Source: a virus (Duplodnaviria > Heunggongvirae > Uroviricota > Caudoviricetes). From it: a DNA stretch of 16,208 nt. Position numbers and translations under genes: made by a program. This document shows positions 9,771 through 14,763 of the stretch, one piece after another. A model generated the notes under the pieces. It was not told the origin of the DNA and did no database searches. It saw only the letters and a program-made list of their open reading frames with translations. Location: IMG/VR virus record IMGVR_UViG_2778261227_000006, one strand, 5' to 3'. Position 1 is the stretch's first letter. The number at the start of each line of letters is the position of its first letter.

Positions 9771-9975
9771 TCATTTTCACTTTTTTAAATCCAACGACAG
9801 ACGGCTGGCATTTAAGTATTGTGAAATATTATCAAATGTAATCATCATTGATTTACAAAAGATACATTTTGCCCCGAAAGGATTCATGTCAGAAACATCA
9901 AAAGATGATGTTCTATACTGGGAACCATGACAACACGGGCATCTAAAGTGAATATGGTTTGTAATATTGTCTACC

Positions 9976-10188
9976 TCAAAGCGCCACTACATGAACAGCG
10001 GCAGGACCTTTAGGTCCGTTCTCAATATCAAATTCAACTTCCTGATTCTCAGTTAATGTTTTGAAATCGTTGCTCTGAATTGCTGAGAAATGGACAAACA
10101 CATCTTTGCTGCCATCTTTCGGCGTGATGAAACCAAAACCTTTTTCAGGGTTAAACCATTTCACTAAACCAGTCATTTTGTTAGACAT
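9976..10188 (-). CDS. cspI: Cold-shock protein, CspA family (70 aa, CspI-like)
   Basis: [70 protein letters not shown] with the KGFGFI and VFVHF RNP motifs; ATG at 10188..10186; long AT-rich 5' leader upstream. Confidence 0.9.
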
Positions 10189-10551
10189 AATTATTACCTT
10201 TTGAAGAAATTAGCCCTTGGGCAGAATGGTCCGAAAAAAAATATCAGAGAGAAAAACCAACAAGGAAATCTCAAGAGGTACAAATAATAAAATTATAACA
10301 ATGACTGCTTCAGATAAATTTGTAACAAACCAGAACACCATTAACGCATGATTAACCACCCATAGCAAGGATTACTTTTGTAAAGAAAAACACAGCAATG
10401 AAAGAATAGCTTTATTTATTAATAATAACGTGTCATTCTGATTAAGACCTTTTATCTTACCCTTAAGATTTCAGGAATTTTGGCTCATGGAAGAGTCCTT
10501 TTTATTTAAATTTTACATTCCGCGATGTAAATGTTCCGATTTAATATTACC

Positions 10552-12326: not shown

Positions 12327-12497
12327 ATGTCAGAACGTAAAAACTCAAAATCACGCCGTAATTATCTCGTTAAATGTTCCTGCCCAAACTGCACCCAAGA
12401 GTCAGAACACAGTTTTTCAAGAGTACAAAAAGGTGCCCTTTTGATCTGCCCTCATTGCAACAAAGTATTCCAGACAAATCTTAAAGATGTAGCCTGA
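12327..12497 (+). CDS. Small zinc-ribbon-like protein (56 aa), antisense to the late operon
   Basis: ATG 12327 preceded by AGGA SD (ACAGGAAAAGCCTATG); MSERKNSKSRRNYLVKCSCPNCTQESEHSFSRVQKGALLICPHCNKVFQTNLKDVA with two CxxC pairs 20 residues apart; TGA at 12495-12497; hairpin/terminator about 60 nt downstream. Confidence 0.5.
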   Translation: MSERKNSKSRRNYLVKCSCPNCTQESEHSFSRVQKGALLICPHCNKVFQTNLKDVA

Positions 12498-12580: not shown

Positions 12581-12860
12581 AGATTGTGGTGCTTTTTGTG
12601 GGAGTCATCCACTTACGCACTTTGTTTTGCCATGCCAGCAGTTAGCTTCTGCTGTAAAACTATTCATGCAGCAAACCTGCACTTCACCACAATGGTTAGC
12701 ATACTTTTCCTGATTAAGATTTTGCCAAATATGCTAGCCATTGTTTCATGTATTGGACCTCCTTACTTTTTATTAAAGAGATCCAATATTCACTACTCTG
12801 TCCGTATCTCTACTCAGGCATCAGCCTTCTTCGTTATCGTATACAGACGAGCGATGAATT

Positions 12861-13076
12861 TTAATCAGTAATGATGACATTTGCTGCTGCAGGACCTTTA
12901 GCACCACTCTCTATAGAGAAGGTAACCTTTTGACCTTCAAATAAGGTTCGATAATTATCATTCTGAATCGCAGAAAAATGCACAAACACATCTTTACTAC
13001 CATCAACAGGAGAAATAAAGCCGAAACCTTTATCAGCGTTAAACCATTTTACTAAACCAGTCATTTTATTTGACAT
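12861..13076 (-). CDS. cspB: Cold-shock protein, CspA family (71 aa, CspB-like)
   Basis: [71 protein letters not shown]; ATG at 13076..13074; TAA at 12861-12863. Confidence 0.9.
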
Positions 13077-13376
13077 TCTACATTCCTTAACTTGAGCCTT
13101 TCGGCATAAATGGTTTGCATAACAGAAACGACTTCGTACTTAATTGGAGAGACTCAAAGAAGGAATAAGTGAATAACACCTGAAATGAGAACTGCTTTAG
13201 TAAACTACTTCGTATATCGTCTGTTCTTCAAACCGACGCAATCATTAACGCATAGTTGAACATATGAAGCAATGTTTATTTTAGACATCCAGCCATCTTC
13301 AACCCCATCAAAAAACTATAGCTTTCTTCAGGAACGTGTGTATAGTGCGCCAAGTTATCAGTATTAAGGAATTTTT

Positions 13377-13589
13377 TTGTCCCGTAAAATGACAGGAATT
13401 GTCAAAACCTTTGACGGCAAAAGCGGCAAGGGTCTTATCACCCCATCCGATGGTCGTATCGATGTCCAGCTTCATGTCTCAGCGCTCAATCTCCGCGATG
13501 CAGAAGAAATTACCACCGGATTACGCGTGGAATTTTGCCGGATAAATGGTCTGCGTGGCCCTTCAGCTGCCAATGTTTACCTTTCATGA
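13377..13589 (+). CDS. cspF: Cold-shock-domain protein (70 aa, CspF/CspH-like), TTG start
   Basis: (M)[69 protein letters not shown]; AAGGA SD at 13366-13370 sits 6 nt before TTG 13377; divergent from cspB. Confidence 0.85.
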
Positions 13590-13643
13590 GCTATATTAAA
13601 GCTTTAATTTCAGGCCCCATCGGATCACACATGGAGAGTTTTT

Positions 13644-13733
13644 ATGAATAACCCCGTCTGTCTTGATGACTGGTTGATTGGCTTTAAAAGCTTATGCTGT
13701 ACTTTGGCCGTAATAGCTCTGCTAATAATATAA
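13644..13733 (+). CDS. Candidate 29-aa hydrophobic mini-protein downstream of cspF
   Basis: GGAGAG SD (13633-13638), 5-nt spacer, ATG 13644; [29 protein letters not shown] then TAA (13731-13733); single predicted TM helix; terminator hairpin follows at 13882. Confidence 0.35.
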
Positions 13734-13881
13734 TAAGCAGACTCATTGTGTTTAGGGACATTGTACTGGAAGAAAACATTTTAAACATCAGGCAAATAAC
13801 CAAGTCACCAGCTAAATAATAAGTTAACAGACATGAGTCCCGGGATGAGATTCAACATTACCATTGCCCCATTTAAAGCAC

Positions 13882-13917
13882 AAAACCCGCTCATCAGCGG
13901 GTTTTCTACTTTTTCTT
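13882..13917 (+). terminator. Rho-independent terminator (plus strand, cspF transcript); possible tR'-like hairpin on minus
   Basis: Stem AAAACCCGC/GCGGGTTTT (13882-13890 / 13897-13905), loop TCATCA, then CTACTTTTTCTT on plus; on minus the same hairpin is followed by UUUUGUGCUUU. Confidence 0.55.
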
Positions 13918-13950
13918 AACGTCGGGTATACAAAGCCCATCGTTGAAAAA

Positions 13951-13978
13951 ATTTTATCCATATTTTTTGAAAAATGCA
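13951..13978 (-). promoter_or_regulatory. Candidate late promoter (pR'-like) just downstream of Q
   Basis: Minus strand TTGCAT (-35; plus 13973-13978), 16-nt spacer, TAAAAT (-10; plus 13951-13956), about 30 nt after the Q stop codon and about 45 nt before the hairpin. Confidence 0.4.
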
Positions 13979-14010
13979 AACATCATGTCGCCATCTTCAG
14001 CAAAAATCAT

Positions 14011-14763
14011 TTATCTCGTCACCTTCCTCAATTGCGCTTCCGCGTATGCTTCTTCCTGCCAGCACTTTGTTACCAGTTTACCAATGACGTCCGCATACCC
14101 CTTATACCACTGATAATCGGTCAGGTCTGGTACCAGCTTCTGGACATGACGTCGTGCCAGCGTGGTCGGTAAACGACTAAACCGGTTTCCATTACAACGC
14201 CCACAAATCTTATATACCGGTACGCCATGAAACCGGGTTCTTTTTTCATCCAGAACAATCCCTTTACCCTTACACCCTCTGCACGCTGTGCTGGCTTCGC
14301 CCTTACCATGGCAATGCTGACATAGTTCCTTCACCCATTCTTCCTTGATTACAGATTCCCCGCGTCTGTAGTGTTTCACCACTTCGCGCAATACATTATA
14401 AAATCCCGTACCTGAACAATGCTCACAGCGAGCCTTACTTGCCGCAGACCTGGAGTAATCAGCAAAGGCAAAACTCACGAGGTAAGGAATAATCTGTAAC
14501 CGGATTTCTTCACTCAATTTGTTCAATGTCGGGTTATCCAGTGCCATCGCGTAATTTAGCAGGCCTTCAATCGCAAACTGAGGGTCCTGAACACCAACTT
14601 TTGCCAGAAATAAGGCCAACCCAAGTGGTGCTTTCGACTGCACCATCCCCTGCGCTGCCATTACATCCGTAATTGTTAAACAACCGGTGCCTGTCGCTGG
14701 AGCGTCATCGCTCAATTTTGGAGATTTTGGGGAGTAATATTTTGGTAAGGCTTCAAGGTTCAT
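14011..14763 (-). CDS. quuQ: Late-gene antiterminator Q (250 aa, Qin/phage-21-type)
   Basis: MNLEALPKYYSPKSPKLSDDAPATGTGCLTITDVMAAQG... with C-terminal Cys/His cluster (CEHCSGTG, CQHCHGKG, CRGCKGKG, CGRCNGN); ATG at 14763..14761; track start at 14793 rejected. Confidence 0.85.
   Translation of the reverse strand: MNLEALPKYYSPKSPKLSDDAPATGTGCLTITDVMAAQGMVQSKAPLGLALFLAKVGVQDPQFAIEGLLNYAMALDNPTLNKLSEEIRLQIIPYLVSFAFADYSRSAASKARCEHCSGTGFYNVLREVVKHYRRGESVIKEEWVKELCQHCHGKGEASTACRGCKGKGIVLDEKRTRFHGVPVYKICGRCNGNRFSRLPTTLARRHVQKLVPDLTDYQWYKGYADVIGKLVTKCWQEEAYAEAQLRKVTR

Follow-up and report, generated by a model that had tools for sequence, protein, structure and literature searches.

The small open reading frame (ORF) that lies 3' of cspF in the window, the whole stretch of 16,208 nucleotides analysed here, is ynfS, an already catalogued E. 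coli prophage gene that is genuinely translated. The frame starts with ATG at position 13644 and closes with TAA at 13731-13733, followed by a second in-frame TAA; the ORF list and a direct read of the sequence gave the same 29-codon frame that had been proposed originally. The counterpart in strain MG1655 is ynfS (b4750, YP_009518791.1, 1642122-1642211), which is located in the cryptic prophage Qin and is flanked by cspF and ydfT. A DNA alignment of the window with MG1655 revealed no difference over the ynfS ORF (100% identity), the ribosome binding site (RBS), the 3' UTR and the terminator, and the sole difference between the two sequences is one synonymous-type SNP within cspF. The locus order cspF, ynfS (same strand) and Q gene of a Qin-like prophage was found in MG1655 and in three other genomes. 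The source prophage of the window is Qin-like and fuller than Qin of K-12, with terminase, portal and capsid genes still present. The features of the locus are listed in Table 1.

Table 1. Features of the cspF-ynfS locus in the window, with the divergence between the three main lineages
Feature	Coordinates	Strand	Lineage divergence	Description and evidence
cspF	13377..13589	+	0.5-3%	Cold-shock-domain protein, 70 aa; ORF list, RefSeq, Pfam CSD (77.8 bits)
cspF-ynfS gap			6-9%	
Shine-Dalgarno GGAGAG	13633..13638	+		Direct read; spacer TTTTT (13639-13643), 5 nt to ATG
ynfS	13644..13733	+	2-4%	29-aa hydrophobic small protein; DNA identical to MG1655 b4750
3' UTR, ynfS to terminator	13734..13881	+	13-16%	Poorly conserved; 7-nt indel
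Intrinsic terminator	13882..13917	.	0% (hairpin)	Stem-loop 13882-13905, T-rich tails on both strands
Putative late promoter PR'	13936..13980	-		TTTGCA, 18 nt, TAAAAT (13956-13951), TTTTTC, AACGATGGG (13944-13936)
Q, antitermination protein (ydfT/quuQ)	14011..14763	-		Pfam PF03589 Antiterm (181 bits); RefSeq; convergent with cspF-ynfS

For a peptide of 29 aa, exact protein-cluster look-up, tblastn and degenerate DNA patterns were used. The YnfS peptide matches Pfam family PF23697 with 80.9 bits (cut-off 27, E = 4.7e-23), residues 1-29 aligning with positions 1-29 of the profile. Its PGAP protein id is WP_120795389.1, and the exact cluster look-up returned the Swiss-Prot style name YNFS_ECOLI. 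The peptide had no match in NCBIfam, PADLOC and PDB, and the search of PHROGs delivered a chance-level match only (E = 0.12). By megablast against complete E. coli genomes, many strains carry the stretch under the labels cspF and hypothetical protein. The novelty implied by the original prediction does not stand, ynfS having a b-number, a Swiss-Prot name and a Pfam family of its own; its reported absence from the ORF track is true of the supplied track only, and RefSeq annotates the gene in MG1655 and in PGAP genomes. Found, named and experimentally confirmed in 2018-2019, ynfS carries little weight as a discovery.

A Shine-Dalgarno sequence GGAGAG with a spacing of 5 nt is present where it had been predicted. 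The core that pairs with 16S rRNA is GGAG (4 nt), located 7 nt from the ATG, and the Shine-Dalgarno sequence is the same in the three main lineages. The start region (13590-13680) contains no more structure than shuffled sequence (z = 0.39), so the RBS of ynfS is not sequestered. K-12 ynfS, for which synthesis was shown by others, matches the DNA of the window including the RBS. VanOrsdel et al. (2018) give ynfS with identical coordinates and sequence in their Table 1, report YnfS among 36 small proteins seen by immunoblot after chromosomal SPA tagging, and note a ynfS signal in an earlier tetracycline ribosome-profiling screen (PMC6001520). Strong YnfS start peaks with retapamulin and Onc112, together with a comparatively low protein level, were described by Weaver et al. 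(bioRxiv 10.1101/511675). The published detection of YnfS made use of a C-terminal SPA tag, which alters that end of the peptide. With DNA identical to that of K-12, the published immunoblot and the ribosome start peaks bear out the ORF as a genuine translated small protein. A 2024 survey counts ynfS among the uncharacterised Qin genes, as does the y-ome paper, and in the papers found to name ynfS no function, partner, phenotype or overexpression effect is given.

The gap between cspF and ynfS measures 54 nt and contains neither a terminator-like site nor a consensus sigma-70 site (consensus scan), which fits co-transcription of the two genes without proving it; such co-transcription is plausible from the sequence. 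Transcription of ynfS is probably supplied by the cspF promoter, and a published genomic SELEX study located a peak of RNA polymerase binding in the spacer that separates cspB from cspF (PMC5493296). An alternative promoter candidate read by eye in the 3' end of cspF consists of CTGCCA, 19 nt and TATATT (13567-13597), and ynfS may have a separate promoter there.

On the plus strand the terminator is formed by a stem of 10 pairs, five of them G-C, followed by the tail CTACTTTTTC. Its fold of -15.1 kcal/mol has z = -7.7, none of 200 shuffles being as stable, and all 36 nt of the terminator are the same in the three lineages. In the consensus scan no other plus-strand site resembling a terminator turned up between cspF and the Q gene, in agreement with the earlier observation that the first strong plus-strand terminator comes only 3' of the ORF. 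Rfam searches of the region on both strands gave sub-threshold matches only (E = 0.16-0.64), with no family above chance in the 3' UTR; one of these, a minus-strand isrK match that overlaps the hairpin, was taken as a generic terminator match.

Two IMG/VR loci (haplotypes h20 and h24) carry an IS insertion ~30 nt past the ynfS stop (window ~13764), which splits ynfS from the terminator; the end of the inserted element, TGATCTTACCCAGCAATAGTGGACACGCGG, is one that we take to be IS3-like. Full-length matches to the Rfam cspA thermoregulator were detected at 12845-13237 (-) and 9949-10334 (-) with 158.8 and 112.6 bits, corresponding to cspB and cspI with their 5' UTRs. For cspF only a partial, chance-level match was obtained (14.1 bits, 13308-13407), as would be expected if cspF is not a cold-induced gene of the classical kind.

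Of 5426 complete E. coli genomes, 1406 (~26%) contain the full region downstream of cspF; nearly all copies share 99% identity or more, and a second type stands at ~91%. In the phage collection it occurs only in the Qin-like Escherichia phages HannyBb, PhiR42_1, PhiR63_1 and 2H10 (five records, four distinct phages). A degenerate pattern of the 10-codon core, run against one representative genome for each of 185,579 species, matched E. coli and Shigella only, and rare Salmonella copies of YnfS are found in the protein-cluster table. Overall, ynfS occurs exclusively in lambdoid prophages of the Qin-like type in Escherichia and Shigella, apart from rare copies in Salmonella. No ynfS-related frame occurs downstream of cspH, the chromosomal paralogue of cspF, and the homology of cspF and cspH ends at the stop codon.

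Strain A23 and phage Tritos have lost the 3' end of cspF, ynfS and most of the 3' UTR by deletion. Both share one deletion, in which distal cspF is joined to the last ~50 nt before the hairpin (A23, L006 1299-1578; Tritos, L139 ~2500-2580), and an evenly spaced sample of matches suggests that this form exists in roughly 200 complete E. coli genomes. In phage HannyBb (L007 4372-6116) the ynfS terminator and Q are separated by ~1.7 kb of additional DNA that neither the window nor K-12 has. This extra DNA holds no tRNA genes and one plus-strand ORF of 94 aa with a hydrophobic C-terminus; many tiny minus-strand 'genes' of the HannyBb record look over-called.

IMG/VR loci were collected in two ways, by the core pattern and by an anchor in the 3' end of cspF; the anchor was used because the core pattern gives ascertainment bias on the ORF. 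The frame of 29 codons is intact in 127 of the 130 anchored loci. The check for frame-shifting variation named in the original prediction gave a mixed outcome: no frameshift was found in these 130 loci, but two contain the nonsense mutation K15* (L133, L135) and one has lost the start codon by ATG to ATA (L126). The variable sites of ynfS comprise 11 non-synonymous and 0 synonymous ones, those of cspF 10 and 9, respectively (28 distinct haplotypes, the two with an IS insertion left out; Fisher p = 0.011 for the contrast), counts that are small, may include sequencing errors among the singletons and derive mostly from prophages of isolate genomes. Zero synonymous change in ynfS is compatible with unconstrained sequence (P = 0.07), and a single synonymous site, T13661C, appeared in the sample collected by the core pattern alone. 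On our reading of these sequences, purifying selection on the YnfS peptide would be weak or absent. Codon 22 (window 13707) is unusually variable in public sequences, encoding Ala, Thr, Gly, Val or Ser; residues 13-21 and 24-28 are nearly fixed.

Divergence between the three main lineages is uneven along the locus (Table 1), ynfS being 3-7 times less diverged than its 3' UTR, and as DNA the gene is accordingly better kept than the stretch that follows it. There may be some constraint on the ynfS stretch; a recombination boundary near 13700 would explain the contrast between ynfS and its 3' UTR equally. We read ynfS as an accessory gene that is dispensable and whose origin is recent and narrow.

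The YnfS peptide has a GRAVY of 1.47, and the mean Kyte-Doolittle hydropathy reaches 2.46 over the 19 residues 11-29. A rough Hessa-scale sum for the same residues, made without position weighting, amounts to ~ -1 kcal/mol. The hydropathy of this segment makes one membrane helix plausible, and the description of YnfS as a single-TM-like hydrophobic peptide is upheld to the extent that residues 11-29 are hydrophobic enough for one predicted helix. Asp8 and Asp9 precede the predicted helix and Lys15 lies inside it; the helix extends to the very C-terminus. Replacements within it are mostly conservative, hydrophobic or small (A22T/G/V/S, V23L, I29M, L11M/V). Lipoprotein formation via Cys6 was considered and rejected on reading the sequence, as a preceding hydrophobic signal sequence and a lipobox are both missing.

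The strand opposite to ynfS carries all late genes of the prophage, namely Q, cspB, holin, endolysin, Rz, terminase and head genes. A candidate for the late promoter PR' was located ~30-75 nt past the Q stop by promoter scan and by reading of the minus strand (Table 1). PR' of phage lambda reads TTGACT, 17 nt, TAAATT, TGACTC and AACGATGGG; the same 9-mer occurs here at the same distance of 6 nt from a -10-like hexamer, directly after Q. The sigma-70-dependent pause element of lambda, at which Q loads, is AACGAT. A candidate AACGAT pause element near the presumed transcript start and a putative promoter adjoining Q are likewise carried by the minus strand of the window.

Read on the minus strand, the terminator has the same hairpin stem followed by TTTTGTGCTTT. 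The hairpin (13905-13882) is situated ~40 nt downstream of the presumed PR' start, in an 80-nt stretch that folds with -30.4 kcal/mol (z = -4.9), and possesses the stem and the U-tracts on both strands of a bidirectional intrinsic terminator. Because a PR'-like promoter precedes it on the minus strand and the fold is strong, the hairpin is probably bidirectional, ending cspF-ynfS on the plus strand and acting as tR' of the late operon on the minus strand. With the hairpin at 13872-13905 (-) as likely tR', a 6S-like minus-strand RNA of ~70 nt is predicted. If the hairpin is tR' behind PR', Q-modified late transcription would cross ynfS and cspF in antisense. The PR'/tR' reading may help the annotation of Qin-like prophages and studies of Q antitermination.

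Also on the minus strand, two weak antisense promoter-like matches extend from 13754 to 13725. They agree in 9 of 12 positions, a level of agreement that shuffled sequence yields 4.7 times per 2 kb in the same scan, and no minus-strand terminator was detected near them by scan. The recently described, putatively zinc-binding ynfU lies at 12327-12497 (+), as placed by offset from L137 12526-12696. Located between the holin gene and cspB, it forms a plus-strand island in the minus-strand late region, like cspF-ynfS.

With a probability of roughly 0.8, the locus holds the known, translated 29-aa gene ynfS of Qin-like prophages, expressed from a cspF-ynfS mRNA as a membrane peptide that has a minor role or no required one and is not a toxin. 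The cspF promoter would drive this mRNA, with ynfS as its second cistron, and the hairpin 13882-13905 would end it. Translation, shown in K-12 by others, would be independent of that of cspF and start from the exposed GGAG site of ynfS itself. YnfS would be a low-abundance peptide and, to judge by its hydropathy, lie in the inner membrane with one helix (residues ~10-29) and a short acidic N-terminal tail. Since the gene appears accessory, dispensable and under weak or no purifying selection, it would be a young gene whose membrane-related role is minor, or else a passenger that is translated without serving a required function. The comparative data lower the expectation of a conserved, sequence-specific role of YnfS.

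It is possible, if rather doubtful, that YnfS is a functional small protein of the inner membrane which, like AcrZ, MgtS or MgrB, binds a larger membrane protein and modulates it; its gene would then be a prophage accessory gene that the lysogen expresses alongside cold-shock-like proteins. The C-terminal hydrophobic segment is long enough for one helix, the peptide is made in growing cells, and the neighbouring small genes ynfR and ynfQ/ymcF are cold-shock regulated. The high proportion of intact frames, the lower divergence relative to the 3' UTR and the mostly hydrophobic-for-hydrophobic substitutions in the helix also agree with such a role. Purifying selection at the codon level is, however, not seen in the 0 synonymous versus 11 non-synonymous sites, the distribution is very narrow, and nonsense, start-loss and deletion alleles exist in nature. 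Nor do the papers found to name ynfS report a partner or phenotype, the y-ome paper classing it as uncharacterised.

An improbable alternative is that the act of translating the frame, or the RNA or DNA sequence, matters instead of the peptide, either by ribosome protection of the 3' part of the cspF mRNA from Rho and RNases or by a constraint on the antisense leader of the late operon. Such an explanation would account for nucleotides that are better conserved in ynfS than in the 3' UTR and for substitutions that ignore codon position, and ynfS does lie antisense within the presumed late leader, between PR'/tR' and cspB with the holin gene. Against it, alleles that have lost the start codon or gained a stop codon persist, a sequenced phage (Tritos) lacks the entire segment by deletion, a recombination breakpoint accounts for the conservation contrast just as well, and Rho sites or processing are without direct evidence.

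We regard as highly improbable a deliberate arrangement in which cspF-ynfS, as a lysogen-expressed unit placed head-to-head with the late promoter and sharing a bidirectional terminator with it, would by its host-side transcription tune how far late transcription reads through into the lysis genes, or when lysis occurs. Were this true, the YnfS peptide itself might be involved, and the excess of amino-acid-changing sites would reflect diversifying selection and not neglect.

Least probable of all is the originally suggested toxin of a type I toxin-antitoxin-like module or other membrane-damaging prophage peptide, an idea drawing on a short, hydrophobic, prophage-borne product, on hokD and relBE nearby in the same prophage (K-12 Qin) and on the two antisense promoter-like matches, and opposed by an open RBS in an unstructured 5' region, by strong start peaks and a tagged protein that is tolerated at native level and accumulates in normally growing cells, by the position of ynfS as second ORF after cspF without a long regulatory leader, by the frequency of such promoter-like matches in shuffles, and by the failure to match any antisense RNA family (Rfam, both strands) or any defence or toxin model; the comparative data argue against effort on it.

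The small proteins AcrZ, MgtS, MgrB and CydX of E. coli each span the inner membrane with a single helix and modulate larger proteins; they are conserved across enterobacterial genera and their partners are known. Like them, YnfS is shorter than 50 aa, has one predicted hydrophobic helix and an RBS of its own, and was detected by the same tagging. Unlike them, it is limited to one type of prophage and shows no codon-level constraint, and the cross-genus conservation combined with purifying selection that marks the AcrZ/MgtS class was not found for YnfS.

With HokD, encoded 3 kb away in the Qin prophage of K-12, YnfS shares the character of a short hydrophobic prophage peptide, which is a property of type I toxins; the blocked translation of such toxins was not found for ynfS. 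The gene has neither a translational lock nor a leader ORF, matched no antisense RNA family and is tolerated from its native locus, and the peptide bears no similarity to the toxin models searched.

The resemblance to phage lambda concerns the late region on the opposite strand, where a strong hairpin terminator follows the putative promoter here too. The predicted 6S-like RNA would measure ~70 nt here compared with 194 nt in lambda, and the hairpin, as putative tR', would also serve the convergent, host-expressed cspF-ynfS unit, which lambda does not possess.
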